NCBI GenBank assembly: GCA_038205245.1
Contig: JBBRCD010000007.1
Location: 2,037-66,036 of the forward strand
Direction of reading: 5' to 3'
DNA from: Burkholderiales bacterium
Lineage (GTDB): Bacteria > Pseudomonadota > Gammaproteobacteria > Burkholderiales > CAIKXV01
Length of the DNA stretch: 64,000 bases
Below are positions 21,097 to 48,237 of this stretch, one piece after another (the first letter of the stretch is position 1; each line of letters begins with the position of its first letter). Made by a program: the position numbers and the translations under genes. The notes under the pieces are model-generated. The model worked only from the letters and a program-made list of their open reading frames with translations, had not been told where the DNA came from and did no database searches.

Positions 21097-21100
21097 GGCG

Positions 21101-21124
21101 GGGTGAGGGTGAGGGTGAGGGTGA
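21101..21124. repeat. 6-bp tandem repeat GGGTGA x4
   Basis: Read directly in the lptC-lptA gap. Confidence 0.95.
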
Positions 21125-21171
21125 GGCAGGTCGAGGTTGGCGTAGTCGGACGGCGAACCCGGACAACGGGT

Positions 21172-23551: not shown

Positions 23552-23602
23552 CACCCGGCGATGGTACCATCCGACCACACTGGCCCGGGTACTGGCAGGC
23601 CG

Positions 23603-25719: not shown

Positions 25720-26424
25720 TCAGAAGATCGTCGAGCCGCCGCACTGGGTCGACCCGTTGGTCGTGTTCCAGAGATTGGATGTGCTGTCAGTGCCGCAGGA
25801 AGGTGCTGCCGTACCGCCCACGGTCGGCGCACTGCCACTGTTGCCGGCATAGGGCGAGAAGCGGAACGACCCGGTAAATGGTCTGCCATCGTCGATCTTG
25901 CGATCGACTTCAGCGACGATCTCCACCGGAATCTGGGCGCCGGATTTCAGGTTATGACGGTTCGGTGGCGTTCCGCTGGGGTCGGCATAGGCATTGTCGA
26001 AGACGAGTTGCAGGAACACGTTGTACGGGTTGGTCGGCGTGGTGGTCAGCGACTCGGCCGGGCTGCAGGAGTAACTGCCGGTGAGGAAACCGGACTTCGA
26101 CAGGTGTTCCCAGGCCAGAATCGCCTCCAGTGAAGGCGTGGCATCGATGATGCCGTTGCCATTGCCGTTGCCGCCGGTGCAGGTGGTAGTCATGTTGGCG
26201 ATGTTCTGCACCGCCTGGCCGTAGTCACCCGGATAGGCGCGAAAGCGATCCTGAAAACCGAAGAAGGCCGCTTTCACCCCTTCCTGGGCCGAGATCAGGT
26301 TACGCACCCGGGCACTGGTGATCAGTTCCTGGCCCTTGAGCACCCCACCGAGCAGCAGGCCGATGATCACCAGCACGATGGCAATCTCGATCAGGGTGAA
26401 ACCGCGTTGATGGCTTCGTGTCAT
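25720..26424 (-). CDS. type IV pilin-like protein (candidate major pilin), prepilin N-terminal methylation domain
   Basis: MTRSHQRG/FTLIEIAIVLVIIGLLLGG: short basic leader, Gly-1, Phe+1, Glu+5, hydrophobic helix. Cys pairs in the C-terminal half. SD AGGAAA upstream of ATG 26424. The longer ORF start (26481) falls inside the promoter element. Confidence 0.88.
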   Translation of the reverse strand: MTRSHQRGFTLIEIAIVLVIIGLLLGGVLKGQELITSARVRNLISAQEGVKAAFFGFQDRFRAYPGDYGQAVQNIANMTTTCTGGNGNGNGIIDATPSLEAILAWEHLSKSGFLTGSYSCSPAESLTTTPTNPYNVFLQLVFDNAYADPSGTPPNRHNLKSGAQIPVEIVAEVDRKIDDGRPFTGSFRFSPYAGNSGSAPTVGGTAAPSCGTDSTSNLWNTTNGSTQCGGSTIF

Positions 26425-26477
26425 GGTTTCCTGGTTTCCTTCGCCCGAAGGCGCGCTGTCGCGATGACCACCCTCCC

Positions 26478-26492
26478 GCAATTCGCGTGCCG
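26478..26492 (-). promoter_or_regulatory. sigma54 (-24/-12) promoter of the pilin gene
   Basis: Minus strand reads C-GGCACG-CGAA-TTGC, against the consensus TGGCACG-N4-TTGC(A/T). The invariant GG and GC are at canonical spacing, and the -12 element ends 54 nt upstream of the ATG. Confidence 0.7.
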
Positions 26493-26533
26493 GGCAGCAC
26501 CGCGAACTTGGCAGACAGGCTCACCGAGCATGT

Positions 26534-26578
26534 GTGACATTGGTCACGCTTGCCAGCCTGAAAACAGGTGCTGGCAAG
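26534..26578. promoter_or_regulatory. two inverted repeats upstream of the sigma54 promoter (candidate activator-binding sites)
   Basis: GTGAC-ATTG-GTCAC at 26534-26547. CTTGCCAGC-N12-GCTGGCAAG (perfect 9-bp arms) at 26549-26578. Centres lie about 50-70 nt upstream of the -24 element. Confidence 0.35.
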
Positions 26579-26641
26579 GCGATTCTCGCCTGGCGGGCGC
26601 GTCGACTGGCTACCGACCGCCGAGTTCTCGGCGCTACTGCC

Positions 26642-26675
26642 GAGGTTTCATCTGCTATGAGGTTTCATCTGCTAT
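26642..26675. repeat. 17-bp perfect tandem duplication GAGGTTTCATCTGCTAT x2
   Basis: Read directly. The second copy contains the stop codon of the 26665..27438 gene. AT-richer than its surroundings. Confidence 0.95.
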
Positions 26676-27438
26676 TGCCATCCTTCGCTGGCTGGGGCAA
26701 GGGCTCAGAACCCGCCAGTCGCTCGAGCAGGAAGCGCAGTTCCTGCGGGTCGCTGATCGCGCCCGAGGCGAGCAGGCCGCCGAGCAGTACCTTCGCCGCT
26801 TCAACCTCGCCGCGGTCGGCCAGCAGCAGCACCGACATCTGCCGCGCCCAGCCCGGCACCGAGGGTCCCGTCGCCTGCTCACTGATCGCGCGCGCATAGG
26901 CCATCGCCAGGTCGGTGTCCTGCAGACGATGCCGCGCGAGGATCGCTGCATGAGCCAGCCAGCGCCAGCGCCGGTCGGGGTCGGCGTCGAAGCTTTGCCG
27001 GACGAAGTCGAGCATCGAGCGCTGTCTGGATTCGATCGGCACTTGGGCATACACATGCGAGGCGAGCAGCAGCGGATACTGGCCGATCGGGTCGAGTGCC
27101 AGCAGCAGCGAGAGCCAGTCACGCAGCCGTCCATAGTCGAGGTCGGCGAATGGCACGCTGACGCCAGGCTGGTTGTCGAACGCCTGAAGGTACAGGGTGG
27201 ACAACTGGGCGAGCGGCAGCGCGTCGCCGAGTGCCGCGAGCCGCATCATGGCCAGCGGCGGTGGCGCTGGCAGATCGGTCGCCCGGGCCAGGGGGGACGG
27301 CTGCAGCGAGTGCACCAGCAAGTGCCCGGCGAATGCAGCGAGCAGCGCGAGGCGCAGGGGTGCCGGCACTGCCGACCAGGGCCTGGGTCGGTCCCGGGCG
27401 CGGTCCGGGATTGACCCGCCCAGCCAGACCACAGTCAC
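26665..27438 (-). CDS. hypothetical membrane-anchored helical protein
   Basis: 257 aa from a GTG that overlaps the upstream stop (GTGA). One N-terminal TM segment (LRLALLAAFAGHLLV), then a helical-repeat-like region. Only the 3' third of ORF 26665..28353 is judged real. Confidence 0.55.
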   Translation of the reverse strand: MTVVWLGGSIPDRARDRPRPWSAVPAPLRLALLAAFAGHLLVHSLQPSPLARATDLPAPPPLAMMRLAALGDALPLAQLSTLYLQAFDNQPGVSVPFADLDYGRLRDWLSLLLALDPIGQYPLLLASHVYAQVPIESRQRSMLDFVRQSFDADPDRRWRWLAHAAILARHRLQDTDLAMAYARAISEQATGPSVPGWARQMSVLLLADRGEVEAAKVLLGGLLASGAISDPQELRFLLERLAGSEPLPQPAKDGNSR

Positions 27439-28259
27439 AGGTCCCGCCGATGGAAGTCGACCAGCGCGGCGGCGGTGAGCAGCGACACGAACACCAGGCA
27501 CTGCACGAACTGCAGGCCAAGCATCCCGGGTGCGGGCAACTGATCCACCAGCCAACCGGTCTGGGCGAACCGGTCTAGGCTGGGCAGCACCCAGGACAGC
27601 GCCTCGGTGCCCAGCCGGGACAGGTCGCGCCAGGGCCCGGCGGCAAGCAGCGGTGACCCACTGGCGATCAGCACCAGTGCGTCGATCGAACGCGTCAGCA
27701 CGTAAAGAGCCGCGCTCAGCACCGCGGCCGCCGGCACGCTCGCCAGGCTCAGGGTGAAGAACTGCGCCATGGCGATCACGATCGCCAGTTCGAACAGCAG
27801 CGAGGCCGACCAGGCAAGTGCCGCGAGCGGCGGTAGCGCAATCAGCAGCATCACGCAGACGCTGCCGACAGCGACCGCCGCCAGGCTGATGAAGCCGGCC
27901 AGCTTGCCCAGCACCCAGGTGGTGCGGGTCACCTCGAGCGACAACGCCGACTCGAAACCGCGTTCGTTGAGTTCGCGGGTCAGACTGCTGATGACATAAA
28001 CTGCGAGGATGAAGACCCAGGCAAAACGCACGCCGCTGGCGATGAGGGCAATGCGAAATCGCGCGCTTTCGGTGATCGCCAGTTCTGCGGCAAACAGGCC
28101 GGCGGCGAGCGCCAGAGCGAGGCTGCCGGCGAGCAGCCAGGGCAGACGGGATCGCCAGGCCTCCAGCAGCGTGAAGCCTGCGATCGTGAACAGTTGCAGC
28201 GGCCAGCGCCCGCCGGCGGTGCTGTTCGGCGCCTGCATCGCTGGCACTGGGGCAGTCAT
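27435..28259 (-). CDS. ABC-2-type transporter permease-like membrane protein
   Basis: 274 aa from ATG 28259 (alternative 28238). Six predicted TM segments with an ABC-2/NosY-like layout. The upstream part of ORF 27435..28787 is antisense to the kinase gene. Confidence 0.6.
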   Translation of the reverse strand: MTAPVPAMQAPNSTAGGRWPLQLFTIAGFTLLEAWRSRLPWLLAGSLALALAAGLFAAELAITESARFRIALIASGVRFAWVFILAVYVISSLTRELNERGFESALSLEVTRTTWVLGKLAGFISLAAVAVGSVCVMLLIALPPLAALAWSASLLFELAIVIAMAQFFTLSLASVPAAAVLSAALYVLTRSIDALVLIASGSPLLAAGPWRDLSRLGTEALSWVLPSLDRFAQTGWLVDQLPAPGMLGLQFVQCLVFVSLLTAAALVDFHRRDL

Positions 28260-28406
28260 GTTCGGATCGATCCAGGCTCGTGTGAAGGGGCGCGCATTGC
28301 TGCGCAGAGCTCTGCCAGCGCCTGCTGGCGCGAGGGTACCGCGGACCGGCCATGATCGCAGCAGTTCCGGGTACCGCCTGTTCCCCAGTTTGTCCTCGCG
28401 GCGGCG

Positions 28407-30155
28407 GTGATGGAGCTCCGTTCGCAGAAACCCACGCAGACCCCCACGCAGACCCGCACGCAGACCCGCAGTGTGCTCTACGACACCCTGGCCGCGCAGC
28501 CGCAGTGGGTGTTGGCGCTGACCCTGCTGTCGCTGCATGCGGCGCTTGCCTGGGATATCGAGGCCTGGTGGGCGCGTGCGATGTGGCTCAGCCATTTCGG
28601 CCTGTTTCTTATCTGGCAGCCGCTGTGGCGGGCGCCGCAGCGCATCGATCCGCTGCCCGCCGCGGCGGTGATCGCCGTGGGCGCCGCGTTTGCTCTCGTG
28701 ATCAACTGGTGGCTCGCTGCAATCTGGATCAGTGTCCTGTTCGCGTTGATCGCCGGGCGGGTGCCTGGCGCCGGCGAACCCGGGCATCGGGCGGCGACGC
28801 TGATCGCATCGCTGTTCCTGCTCGCATTACTCCTGCTCTGGGTGGTGCCGCGGCTGGCCTCCGACACGCCGCTGCCGTACCTGCTGGTGGCGCTGGTGCA
28901 GTTCGCCTTGCCGCTGCTCGCACTGGCGGTGGCGCTGATCCAGATTGGGCCGGTGGCCCGCCCGGCACCGGTGGTCGTCGACCTGATCTACTCGGTGCTG
29001 CTGCTGCTGCTGGTGCTGGTGCTGGTGCTGGGGAGCGTCGTGCTGCACAGCGTGTCCGCCGAGGGTAATTATCTGCTCACGCTCGCGCAGGCGCTGCTGT
29101 CGATCGCCGCGCTGCTGGCCGCGCTGTCATGGCTGTGGAACCCGCGTGGCGGTTTCGGTGGCCTCAGTCAGGTGCTGTCCTGGCACCTGCTGTCGCTCGG
29201 CCTGCCGTTCGAGAACTGGATGCGCAGTCTCGCCCTGCTCGCCGAGCACCAGCGCGACCCGGAGAAGTTTCTGCAGGGCGCGATCGCGGAACTGGTGCGC
29301 CTGCCCTGGGTTGCCGGCGCCCAGTGGACTGCGGCCGACAGCGCCGGCACGCTTGGGTCGCCGGCACGCCACCACATGGAACTGTCCTCGCGCGGGCTCG
29401 CGCTGGAACTGTTCACCCATGTCGCGCCCACACCGGCCCTCAACCTCCATGCCGCGCTGCTCGCGCAGTTGCTTGGCGATTTCTATGATGCCAAGCGGCG
29501 CGAACAACGCGAGCGCAAGCATGCCTATGCGCATGCGATCCACGAAACCGGCGCCCGGTTGACCCATGACGTGAAAAATATTCTGCAGTCACTGCAGTCG
29601 CTGTGCGCGGCGGTCGAGGCAAGCGAGGGCGAGCGCTCGATAGCATTGCAGCAGCTGATGCGCCGGCAACTGCCGCAGATCGCGCAGCGTCTGGAGCGCA
29701 CCCTGGAGAAATTGGCGCAGCCCGAGCCGCGCGAGGCGACCGCCGTCAACGCCGGCCTGTGGTGGCGCAGCCTCGGCCGGCGTGTCGCGCAGGACGGTGT
29801 CGAGCTGGCAAGCCAGGGCGATCTGGACTCGGCACTGCTGCCACAGGAGCTGTTCGACAGCGCTGCCGACAATCTGCTGCAGAACGCGTTGGTAAAGCGG
29901 CAACTGGATGTGGGGGTCGCAGTGCGCATCGAGCTGTCTGCCCTGGATGGAGTACAGCTGTTGGTCACCGACACCGGTGCCGCGATCGACTCGCGCATCG
30001 CCGATCGGCTGCTCACCGAACCGGTCGAGTCGAAGAACGGCCTTGGCGTCGGGCTCTACCAGACCGCCCAGCTTGCCGCCCAGTTGGCCTACGAACTGGT
30101 GCTCACCAGCAATCAGGAAGGCGCAGTTCAGTTCGCGCTAAGACCGGTGCGCTGA
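28407..30155 (+). CDS. polytopic sensor histidine kinase (PrsK/PilS-like architecture)
   Basis: 582 aa. About 8 TM segments in the first 270 aa. H-box ETGARLTHDVKNILQSL, N-box AADNLLQNAL, G-boxes VTDTGAAI and NGLGVGLYQ. The first codons are a 12-bp repeat; GTG at 28473 is an alternative start. Confidence 0.85.
   Translation: MMELRSQKPTQTPTQTRTQTRSVLYDTLAAQPQWVLALTLLSLHAALAWDIEAWWARAMWLSHFGLFLIWQPLWRAPQRIDPLPAAAVIAVGAAFALVINWWLAAIWISVLFALIAGRVPGAGEPGHRAATLIASLFLLALLLLWVVPRLASDTPLPYLLVALVQFALPLLALAVALIQIGPVARPAPVVVDLIYSVLLLLLVLVLVLGSVVLHSVSAEGNYLLTLAQALLSIAALLAALSWLWNPRGGFGGLSQVLSWHLLSLGLPFENWMRSLALLAEHQRDPEKFLQGAIAELVRLPWVAGAQWTAADSAGTLGSPARHHMELSSRGLALELFTHVAPTPALNLHAALLAQLLGDFYDAKRREQRERKHAYAHAIHETGARLTHDVKNILQSLQSLCAAVEASEGERSIALQQLMRRQLPQIAQRLERTLEKLAQPEPREATAVNAGLWWRSLGRRVAQDGVELASQGDLDSALLPQELFDSAADNLLQNALVKRQLDVGVAVRIELSALDGVQLLVTDTGAAIDSRIADRLLTEPVESKNGLGVGLYQTAQLAAQLAYELVLTSNQEGAVQFALRPVR
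28431..28470. repeat. 12-bp tandem repeat C(C/G)CACGCAGACC x3.3
   Basis: Read directly. Encodes TQTPTQTRTQTR at the 5' end of the kinase ORF. Shares a 13-mer with 41930-41942. Confidence 0.95.
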
Positions 30156-30183
30156 GGTTCACTCCACCTCGTCGCGGCGAAGC

Positions 30184-30993
30184 TCAGGGCAACTGGCCCG
30201 CCGAGACCAGCCTGGCATAGAGCACATTGGGGGACAGCCAGGTCACCAGATCGTCGAACTCCGCGCCGGCCGCTCCCGGGTTGCTGCGCACGCGCGACAC
30301 GAACACCCGGTCATTGTTGGCGCTGTTCGGGTTCGCGTTCTGCGCTTCGTCCATCGAGGTCCCCCCGGTTGCCGCGTTCGGCCCGACGGAATAGACGACA
30401 GCCACGGCATTGGTCGCCAGCGTGGCGCCGGCCCCGCAGGCGATGACTGTCGCGCCGCTGCCAGTCGCGCATACCTGAAGGTCCGGGGCGAGCGCTGACA
30501 TTCCGACCATACGCATCTGTCCTGCGCTGGTGAACGCGTTGCCGCTGGCAGGGCTCACTGCATAGCGAACCCGATTCTGCAGCAGGCCCCAGGCGTCGAC
30601 CGCATAGCCCTGCGCATCGACCTGCGACAGGCCCAGGGTGACTGCCGGAACGAAACCATTGTAGGGGTTGGTACATGCTCCCCCGCCCAGCGGGCTCTCG
30701 ACGCCGTTGGAGGCGATCGACGCCGGGCAGGGCAGGCGGCCGTTGGCGAGCGCGAAACCGACCAGCGCCTCGCGGATCTCCTCCAGCTCCCGCTGGGTCT
30801 GGCTGACCCGGCTCTGCTCGACCTGGCTCGCCAGCGGCACCAGCAGGCCCCCTATGATCAGGGACAGAATCAGCAGCCCGATCGCCAGTTCGACCAGGGA
30901 CACGCCGCGCTCGCGCCCTGACTGCGGGGCGGACGGACAGCGGGTTGGATACAGCCCCGCTCGAGCAACAGGTAATCCGACAGATCGCATCAT
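30184..30993 (-). CDS. minor pilin / pseudopilin-like protein with prepilin-type N-terminus
   Basis: ...SGRERG/VSLVELAIGLLILSLIIGGLL (Gly-1, Glu+5). ATG overlaps the upstream stop (TAATG). C-terminus ...FDDLVTWLSPNVLYARLVSAGQLP. Confidence 0.75.
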   Translation of the reverse strand: MMRSVGLPVARAGLYPTRCPSAPQSGRERGVSLVELAIGLLILSLIIGGLLVPLASQVEQSRVSQTQRELEEIREALVGFALANGRLPCPASIASNGVESPLGGGACTNPYNGFVPAVTLGLSQVDAQGYAVDAWGLLQNRVRYAVSPASGNAFTSAGQMRMVGMSALAPDLQVCATGSGATVIACGAGATLATNAVAVVYSVGPNAATGGTSMDEAQNANPNSANNDRVFVSRVRSNPGAAGAEFDDLVTWLSPNVLYARLVSAGQLP

Positions 30994-32294
30994 TACCTCG
31001 GCGACGCGGTCGCCACGGTTCCGGCAGGGACAGGAATGCTCGGCGGAATGACGCCGCTGTTCAGACTGCTCGCGGCGTTTCGTAGCGCAGTGGAATCGAT
31101 ATAGTTCGCCAGCTGTGTCTTGTCTGCGCTGCTGTTTCGTTGCTGGCCAGGGCCGACCACGCCGCCCATGATCACCACGAATCGGGCGCCGGCTACTGGC
31201 GCGCCGCTGGCGCCGGTGACCAGCAGGCTGCCGCCGGCGCAGTTGTTGGCGGGGGGGCCGACACATTCTGGCGAAACGATGTACAAGGCCTGCTCCCGCC
31301 AGCGTTGATGCTGGAACCAGGCGGCGTCGGCAGCGTCACCACGCAACAACGCATCCGGGTTACCGGAAGTTGCCGGTGAGTAGGTGCCGGGCGCCGGTAC
31401 GTTGGCCGGCAACCGGCCGGCCAGCACGCCTGCTTCTGGCACGCAGCCCGCGGTGGTGCCCGGACTCACGCACTCGGCATTGGTGAAGCTGGCTGCCGCA
31501 GGCAGGTAAAGGAAGCGGACAAAGTAATCGTTCAACGCCCGCGCTACCTCTTGCGCGACCCGCCGCTCTGCGCTGGCAACGATGTCCGAACGGGTTACCG
31601 GCAGCAGGCGATCGTTGAACGCCGGACCGGGCGGACTCGCCGAAAACGCAATGGTCGGCGTGGCGTTCACCCCGTCCAGGTAGTTGCTCAGGATGGTGGC
31701 GCTGGCGCCCGCGCGGGTCTGCCCGGGCAGGACGGGACCCGGCGCAAAAACGATGGCAACCAGGGCTTCCCCCGGGAGCTGAATGATCGACAGCTGGGGC
31801 GCGGTATCCGGATTGATGAACCCCGGATTGCCGGTGATGTCGCCGGCATCGCGGAAGTTCGGCGAGATGGCGATCCACAGTTGCTCTCCGCTGCCATCGC
31901 GCAATTCCGGGATGCGCAGCAGCGCCCAGGGAAGACGGCCAATGTACGAGGCGCAGCCCTGTCCGACATATTCGATACCCGGCAGCGAGCGTCCATCACC
32001 ATCGATGTCGGGACAGGGCAGCGAACCCGGACGGTTGTCGTCCGTGGTTGCGTAGGCGAGCAGCGCCTGCTTCGCCAGCGCCAGCGCCTCGGTGGTGCGC
32101 TGATCCTGGCGCGTGCGCAGGGTGTCGGCGTTGAGGCTGCGCACCACGAACACTGCGGCGACCAGGCCGATGAACACCATCACCGCGAGCAGCGCGAAGC
32201 CACGCTGTCGGGCATGCGTCGCGGGTACGGCAGGCGCACCGGGGTTCAGGGTTTTCTTGGGGCGAGCGAGCCTGGGCATGATCGGGTCGGTCAT
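30993..32294 (-). CDS. GspK/PilX-like minor pilin-like protein (no Glu+5)
   Basis: ...HARQRG/FALLAVMVFIGLVAAVFVV, then a ~400 aa Cys-containing periplasmic domain. ATG 32294 or 32279. Confidence 0.55.
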   Translation of the reverse strand: MTDPIMPRLARPKKTLNPGAPAVPATHARQRGFALLAVMVFIGLVAAVFVVRSLNADTLRTRQDQRTTEALALAKQALLAYATTDDNRPGSLPCPDIDGDGRSLPGIEYVGQGCASYIGRLPWALLRIPELRDGSGEQLWIAISPNFRDAGDITGNPGFINPDTAPQLSIIQLPGEALVAIVFAPGPVLPGQTRAGASATILSNYLDGVNATPTIAFSASPPGPAFNDRLLPVTRSDIVASAERRVAQEVARALNDYFVRFLYLPAAASFTNAECVSPGTTAGCVPEAGVLAGRLPANVPAPGTYSPATSGNPDALLRGDAADAAWFQHQRWREQALYIVSPECVGPPANNCAGGSLLVTGASGAPVAGARFVVIMGGVVGPGQQRNSSADKTQLANYIDSTALRNAASSLNSGVIPPSIPVPAGTVATASPR

Positions 32295-32361
32295 TGCGGC
32301 GTTGCTGCTGTGGCCTGAGCGCGTCGGCCGAGGCGGTGCCGCGGACGACTGTTGATGGATA

Positions 32362-33147
32362 CTACTCCCGCACCGGCCGGTCGCTACCCGACCGAGTTTG
32401 CGGCGAGCTGCGGGCAGGGTCACTGGTCGTGTCTCTGGCCGGGTCTCTGGTCGGGTCTCTCGTCAGCTCGCGGGCCGGCTCGTCCAGCCGGCGTCCGAGC
32501 TCGCGCAGGACACGCTCGATGGCGGCGTCCCGCGGGGGTGTGCGAACAGTGTCGGCGGATCCGGCAGGCGCCGCTGTACCCGGGGCGGCACCCTGAGGTT
32601 CGCTCTGAGCCGTATCCCCACCCGCGCCTGGTACGCCCGGCGCCTCGGGTGCCGGGCGTGGCAGCCGGTACCGTTCCTTCACCGTCCCGGAGGCGACATC
32701 GATCTCCTGGCCGACCTTGATGCGCACCCGCCGACCGCTGTCGGGCATTCGCAGGTCGGCACCCTCGGCGGCGTCGCGCACGGCGTCCACTCTGACCGGT
32801 CCGGTCCGGTCAGCCGGGCTGGAGGGTGCTGCGGTCGGTACCCTGTTGACCCAGACCGTGGTGCGTCCGTCATTGCGGCGGACGATCCCGTCGACCGACA
32901 GCGATTGCGGCCCTGCAGGCGTCTCGGCCTTTACCTCGACGACTGGCTCCGGCTTGAGCGGTCGCTTGCGGGCGTCATCGAGCAGCGCCCGCTGCGCCGG
33001 GGAGTGGAACAGGCGGCCAAACGCGTCCTGGGCATGAGCACCCGGGCTGGCGCAGCCGATCGCCATCATGACGGCGAGCGGGGCACCGATGACCAGCGCA
33101 CGTGCTGGCGGTCGGCACCGTTGCCGTGGCGCCCATTCGAAGTTCAT
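32362..33147 (-). CDS. secreted periplasmic protein (MshK/PilP-like by position)
   Basis: 261 aa from ATG 33147 (ATGA overlap with the upstream gene). Signal peptide ...AVMMAIGCASPGAHAQ. Small beta-rich core (SLSVDGIVRRNDGRTTVWVN). Pro-rich linker and an RDPT-repeat tail. Confidence 0.5.
   Translation of the reverse strand: MNFEWAPRQRCRPPARALVIGAPLAVMMAIGCASPGAHAQDAFGRLFHSPAQRALLDDARKRPLKPEPVVEVKAETPAGPQSLSVDGIVRRNDGRTTVWVNRVPTAAPSSPADRTGPVRVDAVRDAAEGADLRMPDSGRRVRIKVGQEIDVASGTVKERYRLPRPAPEAPGVPGAGGDTAQSEPQGAAPGTAAPAGSADTVRTPPRDAAIERVLRELGRRLDEPARELTRDPTRDPARDTTSDPARSSPQTRSGSDRPVRE
32417..32464. repeat. 12-bp tandem repeat GGGTCTCTGGTC-like x4
   Basis: Read directly. Encodes TRDPTRDPARDTTSDP at the C-terminus of the 32362..33147 product. 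Confidence 0.9.
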
Positions 33148-33743
33148 CGTGATTCGCCGCCCGGGCGCGCTGCGGTGATCCAGGCCAGTTCGCAGTCGGC
33201 GCGCAGGTTGGGCACCGGGCGTGGCGCCGCCTCGGCAGGCGTGATCCTCTCGAGGACGCACTCGTTGATCGTGAACACGCCGGCCTGCTGGCGCGCGAGC
33301 ACGCGCAGAAAGCGCATCAGGTCGCCTTCATGAACCAGCCGCAGGTCGATCTTCATCGGCGATTGGGTGAGCGCGGCCTGCGGCTGCTCGGGCAGGTTGT
33401 AGGGGCTCTGGGCACCGATCTGGTACTGCACGCCGAACAGACCGGTGGCGTCGTTCGCCACGCGCAGGCTGTCGATCCAGTTGACCCGCTGCTCTGCGCC
33501 GATGAAGCCGCTGCCGGCCAGCGCGCGATACTCAGGTGCGTAGCGGGTGAGCAGGTCGCGCTCGTCGCCCGAACGCTGGAAGCGCGCGCGCGCCTCATCC
33601 AGCGCGCGCTGCTGCCGGGCCGCTTCGGCGCGGCCACGATCGGCAATCTGGAAGCTGTACCAGCCAAGCGTGACCACCGTGATCGATACCATCACAAGCA
33701 GCAAAGCAGGACCGGTGAACGGCGAAGCGAGCCAGCGGTTCAT
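33144..33743 (-). CDS. PilO/GspM/MshJ-like inner-membrane assembly protein
   Basis: 199 aa. Short cytoplasmic N-terminus, one TM segment (ALLLVMVSITVVTLGWY), a coiled-coil stretch, then a ferredoxin-like periplasmic part. ATGA overlaps on both sides. Confidence 0.6.
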   Translation of the reverse strand: MNRWLASPFTGPALLLVMVSITVVTLGWYSFQIADRGRAEAARQQRALDEARARFQRSGDERDLLTRYAPEYRALAGSGFIGAEQRVNWIDSLRVANDATGLFGVQYQIGAQSPYNLPEQPQAALTQSPMKIDLRLVHEGDLMRFLRVLARQQAGVFTINECVLERITPAEAAPRPVPNLRADCELAWITAARPGGESR

Positions 33744-35305: not shown

Positions 35306-35320
35306 CTCAGCGCGCTCCGG

Positions 35321-36523: not shown

Positions 36524-36556
36524 CGGTCAGCGTCCCGGTGATCCGCGCCAGTGCGA

Positions 36557-38251: not shown

Positions 38252-38253
38252 GA

Positions 38254-39915
38254 TCAGGGCGCGTCCCTGCCGGCTTCCAGCAGTGAAATCCGTTTGCGGG
38301 CAGCGGCCAGATCGAAGCTGCTGCGCGACCCTGCATCGGCCAGCTTCACTGCAACGCGCAGATAGTTGAGCGCCAGCCGGGGCTGCGCGATGCGTTCCAG
38401 GCCGACAGCGAGGTTGAATGCATAGTCTGCATTGTTCGGCTGCAGGTGGTGCGCCTGGAAGAACGCCTGCTGAGCAAGCGGCCAGCGGTTCTGGTCGGCA
38501 TACAGATTGCCCAGGGTGAAGAAAAGCAGGGCCGACGGATCGCGGGTTATCAGTTGCTTGAGCTGGGATTCTGCAGCGCCGGGATCCGCGCGCCCGATCA
38601 GCCCGATCAGCGAGGCCTGCGCATGGGTGTTGCGTGGCTCGACCTCGAGCACCCGGAAGTACAGCCCGGTGGCTGCTTCGTTCCTGTTGCCAAGTTGCGC
38701 GAGTGCGGCCAGTCCGAACAGGGCATCGACATTGCGCGGATCCGCATCGGCCAGTTGCTGGTAGAGCCGCTGGGCTGCATCCAGCCGTCCGGATTGCAGA
38801 TGCTCATACGCTTCGGTGAGTATCGGGTTGACTGGCGTGGTGGTGGTGCCGCGCGTGATGCGGATGCCCGGACCTGCGGCCGGGTCGTCCCCGGTCGACG
38901 GGGCTGCGCTGCGGGGGCGCGCCGGTGGTGCGGCGCTGGCGGTCGCGGTTGTCGCCCGGGCTGGCGGCGCTGGCAGGGCGGGTGCTGCGGCTTGCATCGG
39001 CGTGTCCGCGCCGGCGATCGAACCGGACGCCGCGCCGGGTACGCCTGGCACGCCTGGCACAGCCGCACTGGCTTGCCCGGTCTGCGGATTGAGCAGCGGC
39101 GAGGATGCGAGCGCACTCGGCACACCCGGGGGGGTGTCGGTTGCTGGCGGTGCGGGCTGACCGGCGCTGGCCGAAGGCGCTGCGGGCACACCGGTAATCT
39201 GGGCCGGAGCTGGTGGGGAAACCGGTCCGCGGGTGGCCGGCGGCGGCACTGCCGAAACCGGCGAGGTCAAGAGCGGTCGCGAGAAACCGCGAGTGAACAA
39301 TCCCGGGTACTCGATCTGGAGGTAGAAATAGCCGCCCAGAAGCAGGCCGGCGAAAAGACCGGAGCCGACGATCCACTGCACTCGGGATACCCGATCCAGC
39401 CAGCCAGCACGCGTAGACCCGCTGCCGGCCGAGAGCACCGCGCCGGCCAGTTGAGGCGAGGCCGGCGCGCCTGCGCTGGTGCGTCTGCCGGCGGCGCTCG
39501 ATCGCCCCGGAGCGACGTCTGGCGCGTCATCGAACTGCAGGTCGTCGGGCAACGCAGCAGGGTTGTTCCGGTGGCGGGCGGGACTGCCCTGTATCCGGCC
39601 ACGGCCATGCTCTTGTCCGCCAGTGGCACTTGCAGGCGCGGCGCGTGCCGGGTCGGGCGTGGCCGCCTCTGTCGCCGATCGGCCGGCGGCAACGCCGGGA
39701 GCCGGTGCCTGCGGCGCGCGCGGTCGCAGCGCAGGTTCGCCCGCCAGCGGCTCCAGGCTGAGCTCACCAAGTGCGGGGGCCGACGGTGGCAGAGGCGGCC
39801 GCGACCGCGACTGCCCCGATGCCGGACTGGCCGCCGACTCTGGTTCAGGCTCACCTGCCGGCTTCTCGCCGCGATTCTGTGCGGCCTGCTGCAAGGCCTT
39901 CATCAACAGGCTCAT
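38254..39915 (-). CDS. bitopic TPR-repeat protein (MshN-like)
   Basis: 553 aa. N-terminus MSLLMKALQQA, one TM segment (WIVGSGLFAGLLLGGYFYL), a long Pro/Ala-rich linker and C-terminal TPR repeats. Confidence 0.7.
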   Translation of the reverse strand: MSLLMKALQQAAQNRGEKPAGEPEPESAASPASGQSRSRPPLPPSAPALGELSLEPLAGEPALRPRAPQAPAPGVAAGRSATEAATPDPARAAPASATGGQEHGRGRIQGSPARHRNNPAALPDDLQFDDAPDVAPGRSSAAGRRTSAGAPASPQLAGAVLSAGSGSTRAGWLDRVSRVQWIVGSGLFAGLLLGGYFYLQIEYPGLFTRGFSRPLLTSPVSAVPPPATRGPVSPPAPAQITGVPAAPSASAGQPAPPATDTPPGVPSALASSPLLNPQTGQASAAVPGVPGVPGAASGSIAGADTPMQAAAPALPAPPARATTATASAAPPARPRSAAPSTGDDPAAGPGIRITRGTTTTPVNPILTEAYEHLQSGRLDAAQRLYQQLADADPRNVDALFGLAALAQLGNRNEAATGLYFRVLEVEPRNTHAQASLIGLIGRADPGAAESQLKQLITRDPSALLFFTLGNLYADQNRWPLAQQAFFQAHHLQPNNADYAFNLAVGLERIAQPRLALNYLRVAVKLADAGSRSSFDLAAARKRISLLEAGRDAP

Positions 39916-39933
39916 GGCGAGTGGCGCTCGATC

Positions 39934-41778
39934 TCAGTTTGCCGGTACAGCCCGCGCGCTGGCCGAGGGCGCACGGTCCTGCACGGCTTCGCCCTGCTGC
40001 GGCAGGAAGCGCTGGAAGAAGTTGAGCTCATCGCTCTGCAGCGACGGATTGGTGATCACCGTGGGCCGGATGAAGATTACCAGCTCGGTCTTGGTCGCCC
40101 GCTCGTTACGGAAGCTGAACAGGTCGCCGATGCCGGGTTGGCGTGACAGCCAGGGTACGCCGTCTCGGTTGCGCAACACATCATCCTGCATCAGTCCGCC
40201 CAGGATGACCGTCTGCCCGCTCGCCACCTGCAGTACCGACTCCAGCTCCCGGGTCTGGATCACCGGTACCAGGTTCTCTATCGGTTTGGGGCCCACGCGC
40301 AGGCTCGGGTTGGGGTCGGCTACCGTGCCGGTGACCCGGGTGATGGTCGGTCGCACGGTGAGCGTCACCTGGCCGCTCTCGTTGATCTGCGGGGTGACCG
40401 CGAGCACCACACCGACCGGCACCGTCTGCGCGGTGGTGTTGAACACGGTCGGCTGGATCGTGCCCCCGGTCGTCACCGCGCCCTGCTGTGCCTCGACCTG
40501 AAAGTAGACGAAGTTGTCGGTCACTCGCAACACCGAGGTCTGGTTGTTCAGTGCCATGATCTTCGGACTGGACAGCACCTGGGTCTGCCCGAACTGCTGC
40601 AGCAGGGTGATCGAGGAGACGATATTGCCCGACGACGAGGTGTAGCCGATGGTGAGTGACGGCGAGGCGACAGTCCCGGGTGTCTGCCGGATGGTCACGC
40701 CGCCAAAGCCGCCCAGCCGGCTCCAGTCCACCCCGGCCTGATAGGCGTCGTTTAGCCGCACCTCGGCGATGGTTGCCTCGATCAGCACCTGCCGGCTGAC
40801 TGCCGCGGTCACCCCGTCGAGATACTGCTGAATCAGCTGGTGCTGGCGCTCGGTGGCGAGCACGTTGACCGTCCCGGCAATCGGATTGACCACGACGCTG
40901 TCGCGCACGTCGTTGGCGATCAGCGCCTGTGTGACCGGCTGACCGAACACGGTGTTGAACAACTGGGTGGATGCGGCGCCGGCCCGGCTGACCGCTTCTG
41001 CCTGGGCGAGCCGCTCTTCGCGCACCTGGCGCGCCTGTTCCGTGCGCTGGGCACGGTCTTCCGCCGTCTGGGATTGCGCGCGCGAGGCACTCAGGAGGGC
41101 GCGCAGGTTGGCACCCAGGGTCTCCCAGAAATTGGTCTGCGAGGTCGTGCGTACCAGCGTGGCCGAGGCGTTCACCGCGGCGCCGGCCCCGCCCAGCCCG
41201 CCCGCTGCGCCGCCCGCCGCACCACCGGGCGCGCCGCCGGCGCCGGACGTGCCCTGCCCACCGATCTGGCCTGAAGCGCCGATGGTTGCGGTGGTGTCGC
41301 GCTGCATGTTTACGTAGTTCACGCGGTACACCTTGAAGAACGCTGTGTCCGGCTGCACGATGATGGTCGAGCCTTCGGTGCGCACCCGCATGTCGATCTG
41401 GCGGGCGATGCGCTCCAGCAGGGCCGGCAGCGTCTCGTTGATCGCGTTCATAGTCACCCGCCCGGTGAGGCCGGGGTGGATGTCGATGTTCTGCCGGGTG
41501 TCCCGGGCCAGGGCGAGAAGCAGTTCGCGCACTGGCACGTCGCTGACCACCACACTGTACGTGGCCACCTTCTCCGCGGCTTTCGGCGGCGGCACCAGGG
41601 CCGACACCCGCACCGGCGGCGGCACCACGCTTGGCGGGATGACCTCACGCTCGATGCTCAGATGTCCTTCCGAACGGGGTATCTCCGGGCGCACCTTGAA
41701 CGGCGTGCAGCCAGAAAGCAGCAGTACTGCGACCAGGCCCGTGACCGCATTTCGCTGAAGTATCCGGTGCGTATTCAT
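39934..41778 (-). CDS. secretin (MshL/GspD family), lipoprotein type
   Basis: 614 aa from ATG 41778 (SD AGAGGAA). Lipobox LLLSGC. Secretin motifs VLSSPKIMALNNQTSVLRV, TRELESVLQVASGQTVILGGLMQD and GVPWLSRQPGIGDLF. Confidence 0.93.
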   Translation of the reverse strand: MNTHRILQRNAVTGLVAVLLLSGCTPFKVRPEIPRSEGHLSIEREVIPPSVVPPPVRVSALVPPPKAAEKVATYSVVVSDVPVRELLLALARDTRQNIDIHPGLTGRVTMNAINETLPALLERIARQIDMRVRTEGSTIIVQPDTAFFKVYRVNYVNMQRDTTATIGASGQIGGQGTSGAGGAPGGAAGGAAGGLGGAGAAVNASATLVRTTSQTNFWETLGANLRALLSASRAQSQTAEDRAQRTEQARQVREERLAQAEAVSRAGAASTQLFNTVFGQPVTQALIANDVRDSVVVNPIAGTVNVLATERQHQLIQQYLDGVTAAVSRQVLIEATIAEVRLNDAYQAGVDWSRLGGFGGVTIRQTPGTVASPSLTIGYTSSSGNIVSSITLLQQFGQTQVLSSPKIMALNNQTSVLRVTDNFVYFQVEAQQGAVTTGGTIQPTVFNTTAQTVPVGVVLAVTPQINESGQVTLTVRPTITRVTGTVADPNPSLRVGPKPIENLVPVIQTRELESVLQVASGQTVILGGLMQDDVLRNRDGVPWLSRQPGIGDLFSFRNERATKTELVIFIRPTVITNPSLQSDELNFFQRFLPQQGEAVQDRAPSASARAVPAN

Positions 41779-41861
41779 CGGCGATTCCTCTTGGGCAGGG
41801 GTGACTACCAGGTTGCCGCCGCAGGCCGGCCTCGAGTCCGGTGCCCGGCCACTGGCCGTTT

Positions 41862-41897
41862 GCTGGCAGATTAGCTGGCAGATTAGCTGGCAGATTC
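41862..41897. repeat. 12-bp tandem repeat GCTGGCAGATT(A/C) x3
   Basis: Read directly, inside the 247-bp gap upstream of the secretin gene. Confidence 0.95.
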
Positions 41898-42025
41898 GCA
41901 AGCGGCCTCCCGGGCAGACCCGCACCCAAACCCGCACGCAGATGCGCGGGCAGTCATCCGAGGATCAAGGCTACATCGGATATCAATAGTTTTCAATGGT
42001 TTGCTTCGATTTGTTCGAATCGTTC

Positions 42026-43573
42026 TCAACTTCCTGCCGCGGCGATCTCGGCACGCACCCCCTGTACGGTGCGCAGGTGGGGCGAGAATCCGCGAATCGA
42101 CTCGGGCAGGGCGGCCAACGCCGCACTCGCTTCGGCCCGGTTGGGGAAGCTGCCGTAGAGCACGGTCATCGATGGTCGCTCGCCAGCCTGGGTGCGGATG
42201 ACGAACAGTTGCCCGGCGTCCAGCTGGCGGGAAAGCCGGCGCAGTTGCCGGTCGAGTTCGAGCGCGCTGCGCGAGCCCATGATCTGGATGCTTATCGTCC
42301 CGGGCGGGGCACTGCCGAGCCACGCGCGGGTGGCCACGATGCGGGCCTCGAGCAGCGTGCCTTCCACGGGTGCGCCCTGGGCCTGCCCCGAGCCTGCGCC
42401 GCTGGCCAAGCTCGCCACGGCCGTTGGGCCCGGGATGGCGGCCTCAGCCACCGCTGGCGCTGCTGGCGGCGGTGGCGGGGGTGCCGGAGCAGCGGGCAGT
42501 GCCGCCGGCAGCACCACTGCCGGGTCGGCCCCCGCCTCGGTCTTGTCCGCGCTTGCCGGCGTAACGGGCACCGGCACGGGCGGCGGCACCCCCGGCGGCA
42601 CTTCTGGCGCCGCAACGGTCCGGCCTGCGGTCAGACCCGCTTCGGCCGGCGCGCTCGGGCCTGCCGGACCCGCCCGGAGCCAGACCGCAGCGATCAGCAG
42701 CGCCGCGACGGCGAGGCTGCCGGCCGCGACCGGCCAGCGCCAGCGTGCGGCAAGCGAACTGTTTTGCGCGAACTCGCTATCCCGGATTGCGGCGCGCACA
42801 TGCCGTGGGGCCACCGCATGGGTGCTCTCGGAAAAGGCTGCCAGCAGGGTTTTGTCGCCCAGCAGGTTGACCCGCCGGGTGAGACCGGCCGAGGCCTGGG
42901 CGATCTGGCTGACCACGCGGGCTCCGAACACGTCCGGCCCCTTGAAGCCGGCGGCGCGCAGCCGGAAGTTCAGGTAAAGACCGATATCCGCGGCAGACAG
43001 GGGGGCCAGGGTGAAGCTATGGGTGATGCGCTCGCGGAACTGCCGGATCTCGGGTTTTCGCAGCAGCGTGTCCAGTTCGGGTTGCCCGAACAGCACGATC
43101 TGCAGCAGCTTGTGGCGGTCAGTCTCGAGGTTCGACAGCAGCCGGATCTCTTCCAGCGTGCCGATCGGCATTCCCTGGGACTCCTCGACGAACAGCACGA
43201 CCTGGTGGTTCTGCGCGTGGCAGTCGAGCAGAAAGGCGGTGATCCGCTGCATCGCTTCCAGCCGGCCGGCGCCCGGCGGCAGGTCGAGTTCCAGCTCATG
43301 CGCGACCGCATGCAGAATCTCGTCCGGGGACACACTCGGATTGGCCAGATAGACACCCAGTACTTCCGGCGGCAGCTGCGCCTGCAACATCCGGCAGAGC
43401 ATGGTCTTGCCGCTGCCGACCTCGCCGGTGACCTTGACGATGCCCTCGCCCTGGCTGATCGCGTAGAGCAGGGCGTCCAGGATCGCGCCGCGGTTGCCGC
43501 CGCCGAAGAAGAACTCGGTGTTCGGGGTGATCCGGAACGGCGCCTCGCGCAGGCCGAAGAAGTCGTGGTACAT
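42026..43573 (-). CDS. ExeA/GspA/MshM-like AAA+ ATPase with TM segment and SPOR-like C-terminal domain
   Basis: 515 aa. N-terminus MYHDFFGLREAPF. Walker A GEVGSGKTMLC. TM segment (VAAGSLAVAALLIAAVWL). Pro-rich linker. C-terminal ~85 aa follow the pattern of DamX-type SPOR domains. Confidence 0.85.
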   Translation of the reverse strand: MYHDFFGLREAPFRITPNTEFFFGGGNRGAILDALLYAISQGEGIVKVTGEVGSGKTMLCRMLQAQLPPEVLGVYLANPSVSPDEILHAVAHELELDLPPGAGRLEAMQRITAFLLDCHAQNHQVVLFVEESQGMPIGTLEEIRLLSNLETDRHKLLQIVLFGQPELDTLLRKPEIRQFRERITHSFTLAPLSAADIGLYLNFRLRAAGFKGPDVFGARVVSQIAQASAGLTRRVNLLGDKTLLAAFSESTHAVAPRHVRAAIRDSEFAQNSSLAARWRWPVAAGSLAVAALLIAAVWLRAGPAGPSAPAEAGLTAGRTVAAPEVPPGVPPPVPVPVTPASADKTEAGADPAVVLPAALPAAPAPPPPPPAAPAVAEAAIPGPTAVASLASGAGSGQAQGAPVEGTLLEARIVATRAWLGSAPPGTISIQIMGSRSALELDRQLRRLSRQLDAGQLFVIRTQAGERPSMTVLYGSFPNRAEASAALAALPESIRGFSPHLRTVQGVRAEIAAAGS

Positions 43574-43604
43574 CAGGGGCCTCGCCGCCTGGCGCGCACA
43601 CTGC

Positions 43605-45068
43605 TCATTCCTGACCGTCCCGCGCCAGATCTTCGCGCTCTTTTACCTGCATGCGGCTGTACAGGGTGGTGCGTCGCAGCCCGAGCATGCGCGCGGCCTG
43701 CGCAAGGTTGCCATGGGTCAGAAACAGCGCCGCATCGATGTAGCTGCGTTCCAGTCCGCAAAGCATGCGATCCAGATCGACGCTGCGCACGCTGGCCAGA
43801 TGGCGGCGCGCGGCTTCCACCGAGCGCCGGTCGTCGTCGCCCGCGACGCCCGCGAAGACCGGCAAGCCCAGGCGTTCCTCGCCCGCGCCCTCGACGTCCA
43901 TCTCGGCAAGCAGCCCGGCCGCATTGACCGTCTCGCCCGGGTACTTGGTCGCCAGGCGGATGACGATGTTGCGCAGTTCGCGTACGTTGCCCGAAAAGCC
44001 GTACTCGTGCCACAGCCGTGTGCTCTCCTGGTCGAGGGTGAACGGTGCCCGCCCGGCCGAGGTGGCGTAGTGTTGCCGAAAATGGTCCAGCAGCACCTGC
44101 TTGTCCGCGTCCAGGTCGCGCAGTGGCGGCACCGTGATGGAGAACACCGACAGCCGGTGATAGAGATCGCCGCGAAAGCGTCCGGCTCTCACTTCCTGGC
44201 GCAGGTCGCGGTTGGTGGCGGCGATCACCCGGGCGTTCGAGTGCCGGGTGGCCGTTTCGCCGACCCGCTGGAACTCGCCGTCCTCCAGCACCCGCAGCAG
44301 CTTTGACTGCAACTCCAGTGGCAGTTCGCCGATCTCGTCGAGGAACAGCGTGGAATCGCTGGCGTCCTCGAAATAGCCGGCGCGCGCGCCAGTGGCGCCG
44401 GTGAAGGCGCCCCTGGAATGTCCGAACAGCGTCGGCTCTACCAGGGTCGGTGCAATAGCCGCGCAGTTCAAGGCAATCATCCGGCGGCCGGCATGACCGC
44501 TGCGGCGATGCAGCGCATGCGCGACCAGTTCCTTGCCGCTGCCCGACTCGCCCTCGATCAGCACCGGGAACGGCGCCGAGGCGTACTGCTCGATCTGCAG
44601 ACGCAGCCGCTCGATCGCCGGACTGGTGCCGATGATGGCCCGCTCCGCCCCCTCTGCCGGACGTTCGCTCTCCGCCAGCCGGGATGCCTCGGTGAGCAGC
44701 GCGCGCAGCCGGTCCGGCGGGCAGGGCTTGGCGACGAACTCCATCGCACCGATGGCGCGTGCATGTCGCGCATTGGCCTGATCGTTCTGCCCGGACAGCA
44801 CGATGATCTTCATCTCTGGCGAGGCGGCCAGCAGTTCGCCGATCAACCGGAAACCCTCGTCCGGCCGGTGCGGCGAGGGCGGCAGGCCGAGATCGATCAG
44901 CGCCAGCCGGGGCGTGCGATCGATCTGCCGCAGCAGGCTGTGCACCTGGGCGCGCGAAGCGGCGACCAGCACCTCGTACTCCCCGCCGAGCGTGAAGTCG
45001 AGCGTGTCGGTGATCAGCGGATCATCATCGACAATCAGCAGGTCGGGCTTGCGGGTGGCTTGGGCCAT
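43605..45068 (-). CDS. sigma54-dependent response regulator (NtrC family, PrsR-like receiver)
   Basis: 487 aa. Receiver with [13 protein letters not shown]+ core GESGSGKE, the GAFTGA loop (RGAFTGATG), and a C-terminal Fis-type HTH ([21 protein letters not shown]). Confidence 0.92.
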
Positions 45069-45145
45069 GGTCTATGAGGTGGGCGGGGAGGTTGCACGGA
45101 GAGCACGGGGAGCACGGGGAGGTGGCAGTGTGAGCAGGACCTGAG

Positions 45146-45196
45146 GCAGCACAGGAACTCGGGCAGCACAGGAACTCGGGCAGCACAGGAACTTGC
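45146..45196. repeat. 17-bp tandem repeat GCAGCACAGGAACT(C/T)G(G/C) x3
   Basis: Read directly, 78-128 nt upstream of the response-regulator ATG. A second short duplication (GAGCACGGGGA then GCACGGGGA, the second copy lacking the leading GA) lies at 45101-45120. Confidence 0.95.
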
Positions 45197-46014: not shown

Positions 46015-46054
46015 TGTCCGGGGTAGAATCGCGCTTTAAACTTCCAGATCACGC

Positions 46055-48124: not shown

Positions 48125-48237
48125 TCGCCGCCAGTGCTGTCGTTGAAAACCGGCAGTGTCCGGTAGCGGGTTCCAACGATTTCCCGCAACGTTTCGGGGC
48201 GGCCGCAAAATGCCGCCATGGTTGTCCCTCTTTTGTC

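Follow-up and report, generated by a model that had tools for sequence, protein, structure and literature searches.

The window analyzed here, a stretch of 64,000 nucleotides on contig JBBRCD010000007.1 of a Burkholderiales bacterium, contains a 16-gene cluster at 25720-46014 which, judged from its sequence, is an intact type IV pilus locus related to the mannose-sensitive hemagglutinin (MSHA) pilus, membership in the MSH group being likely but unproven. Its product is probably an outer-membrane-spanning type IV pilus of the MSHA lineage, and most likely a surface-attachment pilus built at high concentrations of cyclic di-GMP (c-di-GMP). An earlier description made from the letters alone (the original prediction) had presented the region as a type IV filament machine, reduced and rearranged, under two-component control of its own. 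The rearranged machine and its control were upheld by a secretin closest to MshL, an extension ATPase with MshEN motifs, a sigma-54 response regulator and a sigma-54 promoter of the major pilin gene. The word "reduced", however, undersells the locus, which has gained an ATP-binding cassette (ABC) module, a SPOR domain on its MshM-like protein and a pair of regulators resembling PilS/PilR.

Since the window has a G+C content of ~66%, raw lists of open reading frames (ORFs) are crowded, and one gene per stretch was singled out by the GC content of third codon positions (GC3). All 16 ORFs of the cluster are full length, with GC3 values of 0.75-0.87 where scored in this composition screen. The ORFs named earlier and their order on the minus strand were borne out by high GC3 and by Pfam or NCBIfam matches. 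The compact spacing described from the secretin gene downward is exact, with successive gaps of 18, 2, 33, 15, -4, -4, 67 and -1 bp, and the start/stop overlaps are ATGA at the two -4 junctions and TAATG at the -1 junction. The sole long gap in the operon (247 bp) separates the MshM-like gene from the secretin gene. No Pfam or NCBIfam match at E<=0.01 was obtained for six of the conserved proteins (p7-p10, the permease-like protein and p14), and the earlier labels "PilO-like" for p8, "periplasmic" for p9 and "GspK-like" for p10 reflect position and topology only. The features of the cluster, including transmembrane (TM) segments and tetratricopeptide repeat (TPR) domains, are as follows, in the order of the conserved block:

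45268-46014, minus strand: ABC transporter ATPase (abcA), opening the conserved block; ABC_tran, with NCBIfam matches of the DrrA/NodI/GldA type
43605-45068, minus strand: sigma-54 response regulator, functionally PilR-like; Response_reg, Sigma54_activat and HTH_8
42026-43573, minus strand: MshM/ExeA(GspA)-like AAA ATPase; AAA_22 (E 1e-28) and SPOR (E 3.6e-5)
39934-41778, minus strand: MshL-type lipoprotein secretin; Pfam Secretin and Secretin_N_2, LSGC lipobox
38254-39915, minus strand: TPR protein in the MshN position; TPR_19, TPR_16 and TPR_14 matches in the C-terminal 200 residues
36557-38251, minus strand: MshE-like extension ATPase; T2SSE (E 2e-124) and MshEN
35321-36523, minus strand: inner-membrane platform protein of the GspF/PilC/MshG family; two T2SSF domains
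33740-35305, minus strand: p7, PilM-PilN fusion of MshI/GspL-like architecture, from its model and a Foldseek search
33144-33743, minus strand: p8, bitopic membrane protein in the PilO/GspM/MshJ position; one N-terminal TM segment
32362-33147, minus strand: p9, secreted periplasmic protein in the PilP/GspC/MshK position; signal peptide
30993-32294, minus strand: p10, large pilin-like protein without Glu5; N-terminus QRGFALL and TM helix
30184-30993, minus strand: p11, minor pilin/pseudopilin; class III signal G/VSLVE with Glu5 (processing point marked by the slash)
28407-30155, plus strand: polytopic histidine kinase, functionally PilS-like; HATPase_c (E 1.6e-5)
27435-28259, minus strand: polytopic protein resembling a permease, probably the membrane part of the ABC module; ~6 TM segments, weak ABC2_membrane match (E 0.037)
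26665-27438, minus strand: p14, single-pass membrane protein with a TPR-like helical domain; TM segment and profile search
26534-26547, minus strand: palindrome GTGACCAATGTCAC, candidate activator site; starts 56 nt upstream of the sigma-54 element
26478-26491, minus strand: sigma-54 (-24/-12) promoter GGCACGCGAATTGC of the pilin gene; motif match
25720-26424, minus strand: major pilin, type IVa-like; N_methyl (E 1.6e-8)

Secretin, motor and alignment proteins

The secretin carries much of the MSH affinity. MshL was its best family, with by far the lowest E-value, in 25 of 25 sequences (the window protein and 24 orthologues), and for the window protein the bit scores were 236.7 against TIGR02519 (MshL, cut-off 250.2), 146 against GspD (cut-off 351) and 108.4 against PilQ (cut-off 284.35). 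It contains Secretin_N_2, not repeated Secretin_N domains, and an LSGC-type lipobox was found in 49 of 57 orthologues. The secretin gene is flanked by the genes of the MshM-like ATPase and the TPR protein, the three lying between the regulator and the motor ATPase. The MshM-like protein scored 211 bits (cut-off 324.5) with TIGR03015, a pepcterm ATPase family described as homologous to MshM/GspA ATPases. Its one predicted TM segment (residues 281-299) and its C-terminal SPOR domain make up an ExeA-like architecture, as far as the sequence indicates. The TPR protein gene is kept at the same position in related loci. In the window this protein has 553 residues, and 18 orthologues measured 397-492 residues except one of 577; the added length is low-complexity sequence, rich in Pro and Ala, within the N-terminal two thirds. 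Inside the 247-bp gap between the MshM-like and secretin genes, at 41862-41896, is a perfect tandem repeat with a 12-bp unit (GCTGGCAGATTA, 2.9 copies), which was found in 0 of 83 related loci.

The MshE-like ATPase passes the NCBIfam model for c-di-GMP binding, NF053729 (58 bits against a cut-off of 38), and among PDB sequences it matches PilF, PilB and GspE at E-values from 1e-117 to 1e-107. Its first 150 residues match the N-domain of Vibrio cholerae MshE (5htl, E 6e-15), and two 24-residue MshEN motifs begin at residues 9 and 38, in the register of V. cholerae MshE, in 69 of 74 orthologues. This 24-residue motif is the c-di-GMP-binding element defined in PMC5013675; the ATPase would be expected to bind the nucleotide. 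In the proposed mechanism, c-di-GMP bound to MshEN would activate the ATPase and thereby polymerization on the platform protein, while the SPOR-bearing MshM/ExeA-like ATPase and the TPR protein might aid insertion of the MshL-type secretin through the peptidoglycan.

The PilM-PilN fusion proposed earlier for p7 gained support from its fold. The protein (521 residues) had no Pfam or NCBIfam match and none in a profile search of PDB sequences. Its AlphaFold2 (AF2) model, with a mean predicted local distance difference test score (pLDDT) of 74.7, contains an actin-like domain, a long helix at residues 295-359 that crosses the membrane and a small alpha/beta domain; the PilM-like part is followed by a TM helix and then a ferredoxin-like periplasmic domain. 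Foldseek placed PilM at the top (5eou, E 1.2e-8), with matches also to 3jc8 and 2ych, and the cytoplasmic domain of PulL (5tkw) at rank 50. The model thus supports a PilM-PilN fusion.

The two following genes encode small envelope proteins. The p8 family is highly conserved (60% mean column identity) and its start overlaps the p7 stop (ATGA). By hhalign, which was used as a test for paralogy of the PilN/PilO type, p8 had no detectable homology to p7, and it had none to any PDB chain. Conserved in p9 are the blocks GRLFFTPAQRAxLD, NGxVRRSDGxxTVWINN and LKVGQ..SGxIxE; a disordered tail comes after them, and the protein had no family or PDB match. The positions of p8 and p9 suggest roles of the PilO/MshJ and PilP/MshK kind, and together with p7 they would join the inner-membrane motor to the secretin. 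An in-frame 12-bp tandem repeat at 32413-32460 corresponds to RDPTRDPARDTTSDPAR in the C-terminal tail of p9, a poorly conserved and probably disordered segment.

Pilin-like proteins and control of the major pilin gene

That only three pilin-like genes are present, as stated in the original prediction, was confirmed by a six-frame scan for class III signals, which yielded two genes with Glu5 (the major pilin and p11) plus the Glu5-less p10. The leader of the major pilin usually has 5-8 residues before the G/FTLIE site, and the mature protein is ~226 residues long. Across its family there is hardly any variation in the first ~60 residues; a Cys pair at the C-terminus and the motif DRKIDDG are further features. 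The best PDB match of its profile was Neisseria PilE (E 1.2e-5), MshA (9lab) being matched over the N-terminal 22 residues only; its N-terminus also matches GspG/GspH models.

The other two pilin-like proteins are paralogues of each other: an hhalign comparison of their profiles gave a probability of 99.65% (E 3.8e-25, 204 columns). Both carry the motifs ALIGxA...LPCP and G.LPW.TLG, and p10 has ~170 more residues at its C-terminus. The p11 alignment has an invariant G..L.E and an LPCP motif; its start overlaps the p10 stop (TAATG), and it matches N_methyl (E 8e-4) and the GspG N-terminus (E 1e-5). The N-terminus of p10 is GspK-style, with QRGFALL and a hydrophobic helix without Glu5, and RPGxLPCPD and GRLPWxTLG are its conserved motifs. 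The AF2 model of p10 is confident (pLDDT 88.1, predicted template-modeling score 0.83), and Foldseek returned no real match to it among 350,542 PDB chains, neither GspK nor any other. For this reason the earlier GspK label was dropped; p10 is better described as the paralogue of p11, and like p8 and p9 it had no Pfam, NCBIfam or PDB sequence family match. Among 1.84 billion representatives its profile matched 2322 clusters (50% identity) at E<=1e-30, some of which may be p11-type paralogues. A tip or priming subunit is the probable role of p10, and the p10/p11 pair would prime or cap the filament. A prepilin peptidase encoded elsewhere would process the pilin, p11 and perhaps p10.

The major pilin gene is set apart by its promoter. 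In 37 of 46 loci the element GG[CT]A[CT]N5T[TG]GC precedes the estimated start of the pilin gene by ~46-70 nt; before other genes of the block there were 0-3 copies each, against a background of 0.068 per kb. A generic scan of the window for TGGC-N8-TGC had been barely over chance and was set aside for this stricter, position-aware test across loci; scans for consensus sigma-70 promoters and terminators did no better than on shuffled sequence. Farther upstream, 62-72 nt from the sigma-54 element, sequences with 7 or 8 of the 8 positions of GTGA-N6-TCAC occurred in 8 of 31 relatives, compared with ~1% of control positions; this is only suggestive of GTGACCAATGTCAC as an activator-binding site. 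A perfect 17-bp direct repeat (GAGGTTTCATCTGCTAT, two copies, 26642-26675) spans the p14 stop toward the upstream region of the pilin promoter. The sigma-54 gene rpoN itself lies ~7 kb from the pilin promoter.

The kinase has five to seven hydrophobic segments in residues 97-241 and the H-box LTHDVKN in its translation. Its gene converges on p11, diverges from that of the permease and is oriented against the block in every locus. The best NCBIfam matches of the regulator were PrsR and NtrC, both under their cut-offs. In PilS/PilR systems, a kinase with six TM segments senses membrane pilin, and the regulator together with sigma-54 activates pilA (PMC6058289). Since the locus combines a sigma-54 promoter of the pilin gene, a sigma-54 activator and a polytopic kinase, a circuit of this type is the simplest reading, and the kinase and regulator probably act on the pilin gene as PilS and PilR do, turning on the major pilin from its own -24/-12 promoter. 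These three components are shared with Pseudomonas aeruginosa and other bacteria with type IVa pili, where the regulator is likewise an NtrC-family sigma-54 activator. The two genes here, in contrast, are ~13 kb apart on opposite strands and sit in an MSH-like rather than a type IVa pilus (T4aP) locus; the likeness is a functional one.

A PrsK/PrsR/PrsT system, as associated with PEP-CTERM proteins, was considered and rejected: the regulator, TPR protein and AAA ATPase matched its models only under the cut-offs, the kinase had no PrsK match and no exosortase was found. Two further repeats touch the regulatory genes. In the 199-bp gap between abcA and the regulator gene, a 17-bp tandem repeat (GGCAGCACAGGAACTCG, three copies at 45145-45195) has perfect copies 1 and 2 and one mismatch in copy 3, the chance expectation being no match; it may serve as a regulatory site or be peculiar to the strain. 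An in-frame 12-bp tandem repeat at 28423-28467 corresponds to TQTPTQTRTQTR at the N-terminus of the kinase, again in a poorly conserved, probably disordered segment.

Conservation of the locus and its ABC module

Relatives of p7 were present in 283 genomes in a scan with one genome per GTDB species. At least 390 relatives were found in a protein collection, all of them named "hypothetical protein" and none with a Pfam domain. The best 80 of the 283 genomes are mostly labeled Burkholderiales or Betaproteobacteria and come from soil, lakes and groundwater. The synteny comparison proposed in the original prediction was carried out by mapping the 16 window proteins onto 83 fetched loci, in which gene order was judged as far as each contig reaches. 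The order was invariant in 83 of 83: ABC ATPase, regulator, MshM, secretin, TPR protein, MshE, platform protein, p7-p11, kinase (on the opposite strand), permease, p14 and pilin. It is constant across the clade and not peculiar to the source genome. Identity of p7 across these loci was 36-69%, and that of MshE ~75% in the more distant ones; gene lengths agree with those of the orthologues and the ORFs are intact. The preservation of order and reading frames despite the divergence of p7 supports functional constraint on the locus.

The chromosomal neighbors are also recurrent, with a kefB-like exchanger gene and kdsD on one side and mlaF on the other in many relatives. A mobile island was ruled out on these grounds, and the locus is a stable chromosomal feature. 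It lies between two cell-envelope neighborhoods. The one at 17974-25594 comprises rpoN, lptB, lptA, lptC, an unassigned ORF in the place of kdsC, a homologue of kdsD and a Na/H exchanger carrying TrkA domains; the one at 46040-48945 has mlaFEDC, beyond which follow ABC/ABC-2 genes, murA and the his operon.

The "ABC-2 permease pair" of the original prediction needs correction: 27435-28259 encodes one permease-like polytopic protein, but its partner (26665-27438) is the single-pass, TPR-like p14. The cognate ABC ATPase gene (45268-46014) lies just beyond the span then described, directly upstream of the regulator gene, as in related loci. The GTG start of p14 overlaps the permease stop (GTGA), by which the two genes are, from their arrangement, translationally coupled. 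The p14 alignment has 57% mean column identity, and its profile matched only designed TPR proteins in the PDB (best E 5.8e-5).

Among 26 loci with both ends covered, abcA, permease and p14 occurred together in 21, were all absent in five and were mixed in none. Because of this all-or-none pattern the three are regarded as one unit split around the pilus operon, and since five loci keep the pilus genes without it, the module is dispensable for these genes. The transporter may nevertheless be linked to the pilus: in the proposed mechanism, the flanking ATPase, the permease and p14 would form one accessory transporter serving it. Loci L049, L051, L057, L063, L068 and L073 have the full pilus block and no abcA, permease or p14; in this subgroup the pilin gene directly follows the kinase gene (for L051 from the gene map only). 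The subgroup is well suited to comparisons aimed at what the module does.

An ABC transporter, PilG/PilH/PilI, is also encoded in the T4aP cluster of Myxococcus xanthus (PMC6060248). The likeness is one of gene content: in both cases pilus genes are accompanied by those of an ABC ATPase, a permease and one more protein, whereas here the ATPase and permease genes are at opposite ends of the pilus operon. In M. xanthus, pilGHI lie beside pilS/pilR/pilA.

Relation to known filament systems

MSH systems are defined by mshA, E, G, L and M (Denise et al. 2019), and their genes form a single locus from which the prepilin peptidase is absent as a rule (PMC6668835). In its content the present cluster fits the MSH pattern, as a likely but unproven member: all its parts lie within 25720-46014, no prepilin peptidase is among them, the MshEN N-domain of its MshE-like ATPase is recognized by NF053729, by 5htl and by its two motifs, and there are candidates for MshA, G, L and M. 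Like the Vibrio MSHA locus, it encodes a lipoprotein secretin closest to MshL, an AAA ATPase resembling MshM, a TPR protein at the place of MshN, an MshEN-bearing extension ATPase, a platform protein and an MshI-like PilM-PilN fusion followed by two small envelope proteins in the MshJ and MshK positions, all in one locus without a prepilin peptidase or a retraction ATPase. The absence of the last two from the window was stated in the original prediction and confirmed, neither a Peptidase_A24 nor a PilT domain being found in the scanned GC3-supported ORFs. It had been taken there as non-canonical, a view that does not hold because MSH loci lack the peptidase and, according to PMC9815625, the V. 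cholerae MSHA pilus uses PilT, a retraction ATPase that serves other type IVa pili as well.

The differences from Vibrio MSHA are those of arrangement and of added parts. The gene order here, M-L-N-E-G-I-J-K, departs from the I-J-K-L-M-N-E-G of Vibrio, whose whole order is mshHIJKLMNEGF, then BACDOPQ. Two minor pilin genes follow the I-J-K-like genes, and the major pilin gene is separate with its own promoter, unlike in Vibrio. MshH, MshF and the MshB/C/D/O/P/Q set are missing, with three pilin-like genes instead, two of them from the unannotated paralogous family of p10 and p11. The I/J/K-like proteins are not recognizable by sequence. The MshM-like protein has a TM segment and a SPOR domain, whereas Vibrio MshM is a shorter cytoplasmic protein. 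The sigma-54 two-component pair, the sigma-54 pilin promoter and the ABC module are likewise peculiar to the present locus. A standard T4aP locus is not matched either: PilB and PilQ scores are under the cut-offs, PilM and PilN are fused and the window has no PilT.

Several observations weigh against an MSHA-lineage surface pilus. The curated equivalog cut-offs were all missed, narrowly for MshL and clearly for GspE, GspF, PilB and PilQ, and because the MshL, GspE, PilB and GspF scores fall below them, orthology with Vibrio is not established. The extension ATPase and platform protein score marginally better against type II secretion system (T2SS) than against T4aP models. No homology of p8 and p9 to PilO/PilP or MshJ/MshK was detectable, and, p10 having no structural relative, its tip role is argued from position and a pilin-like N-terminus. 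The candidate activator site is recognizable in only 8 of the 31 relatives, the retraction ATPase and prepilin peptidase were not located on this contig, and the best 80 of the 283 genomes are all metagenome-assembled genomes (MAGs).

The first alternative, which we consider rather unlikely, is that the cluster represents a distinct, unnamed class of type IV filament, sister to MSH, in which pilus and ABC transporter work as one machine that might export or modify a pilus-associated molecule. It would account for the six proteins (p7, p8, p9, p10, the permease-like protein and p14) without a Pfam or NCBIfam family at E<=0.01, for the large, unannotated p10/p11 family (2322 clusters at E<=1e-30), for the p10 globular domain without a PDB fold match, and for the ABC parts that flank the pilus genes and come and go as a unit; the order fixed across the clade and the missed equivalog cut-offs agree with it as well. 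However, each recognizable core part matches known T4aP, MSH or T2SS families best, the pilus genes occur without the ABC module in five loci, and scores under curated cut-offs are common for MAG proteins. In its fullest form, a separate class widespread in uncultured Burkholderiales with its own minor pilins (p10/p11), its own alignment proteins (p8, p9) and an integrated transporter, the idea is equally doubtful. If it were true, the transporter and p14 might supply, modify or export something that the pilus needs, and would open a way to understanding the Myxococcus transporter PilGHI, which has long lacked an explanation.

Less probable still is a divergent T2SS, in which the three pilin-like proteins would form a short periplasmic pseudopilus pushing folded proteins through the secretin, and the ExeA-like ATPase would help the secretin across the peptidoglycan, like ExeAB of Aeromonas. 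The extension ATPase scored 511.9 bits with GspE (cut-off 630.25) and 503.9 with PilB (cut-off 675.65), and the platform protein 304.7 with TIGR02120 (GspF, cut-off 424) and 247.6 with PilC. As in the systems with ExeA/ExeB (GspA/GspB) of Aeromonas and Vibrio, a GspE/GspF-family motor and platform are combined here with a GspL-like fusion, whose fold also matches the PulL cytoplasmic domain (rank 50), with one pilin-like protein lacking Glu5, as GspK does, and with an inner-membrane AAA ATPase bearing a periplasmic peptidoglycan-binding domain, the architecture of ExeA/GspA. The N-termini of p11 and of the pilin match GspG/GspH models. The peptidoglycan-binding domain is, in contrast, SPOR here and PG_binding_1 in ExeA. 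MshEN domains, for their part, are found on T2SS ATPases too (PMC5013675).

The secretin, however, is not GspD-like, with 146 bits for GspD (cut-off 351) against 236.7 for MshL and with Secretin_N_2 in place of repeated Secretin_N. GspD, GspE and GspF are all under their cut-offs, no GspC domain was recognized, and there are three pilin-like genes instead of the five-member pseudopilin set, the Glu5-less one having a model that matches neither GspK nor any other PDB chain. The main pilin is large and type IVa-like, with a Cys pair and its own strong-looking sigma-54 promoter, and no candidates for secretion substrates are encoded nearby, the flanks being housekeeping genes. The type IVa-like pilin features, the non-GspD secretin, the absence of GspC and the three pilin-like genes thus speak for a pilus at the cell surface rather than the pseudopilus of a T2SS.

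The third alternative, that a pilus locus survives here only as a decaying or silent remnant, might draw on the lack of a prepilin peptidase and of a retraction ATPase in the window; it is highly improbable and already contradicted by conservation, given 16 full-length ORFs with GC3 of 0.75-0.87 where scored, lengths matching those of orthologues, and order, promoter and motifs kept across loci with p7 identities of 36-69%.

Type IV filaments have a central part in attachment, biofilm formation, DNA uptake and secretion, and a few cultured Gammaproteobacteria have supplied most of what is known of them. Read as an MSHA-related pilus, the locus would unite three layers known separately: the sensing of c-di-GMP through MshEN, sigma-54 control of the pilin gene in the manner of PilS/PilR, and an ExeA-like assembly factor that binds peptidoglycan. 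Its fixed 16-gene design is widespread (283 genomes) and unstudied; it follows familiar principles and overturns nothing known. It offers a well-defined target for annotation of MAGs, for extending the TXSScan models and for structural studies of the tip subunits.

In the rest of the window, the remaining scanned GC3-supported ORFs with a family match are housekeeping genes: thiGS, asmA, mrp, rapZ, hprK, ptsN, rpoN, lptBAC, a kdsD homologue, mlaFEDC, murA, the his operon and tatABC, beside the above-mentioned ORF in the kdsC position and the Na/H exchanger. Two overlapping candidate ORFs, 6164-6835 on the minus and 6802-7404 on the plus strand, have a coding-like GC3 and no Pfam match. The ORF 14336-15229, between rapZ and a gene with a Lon substrate-binding domain, encodes a Surface-adhesin protein E (Adhesin_E) domain.

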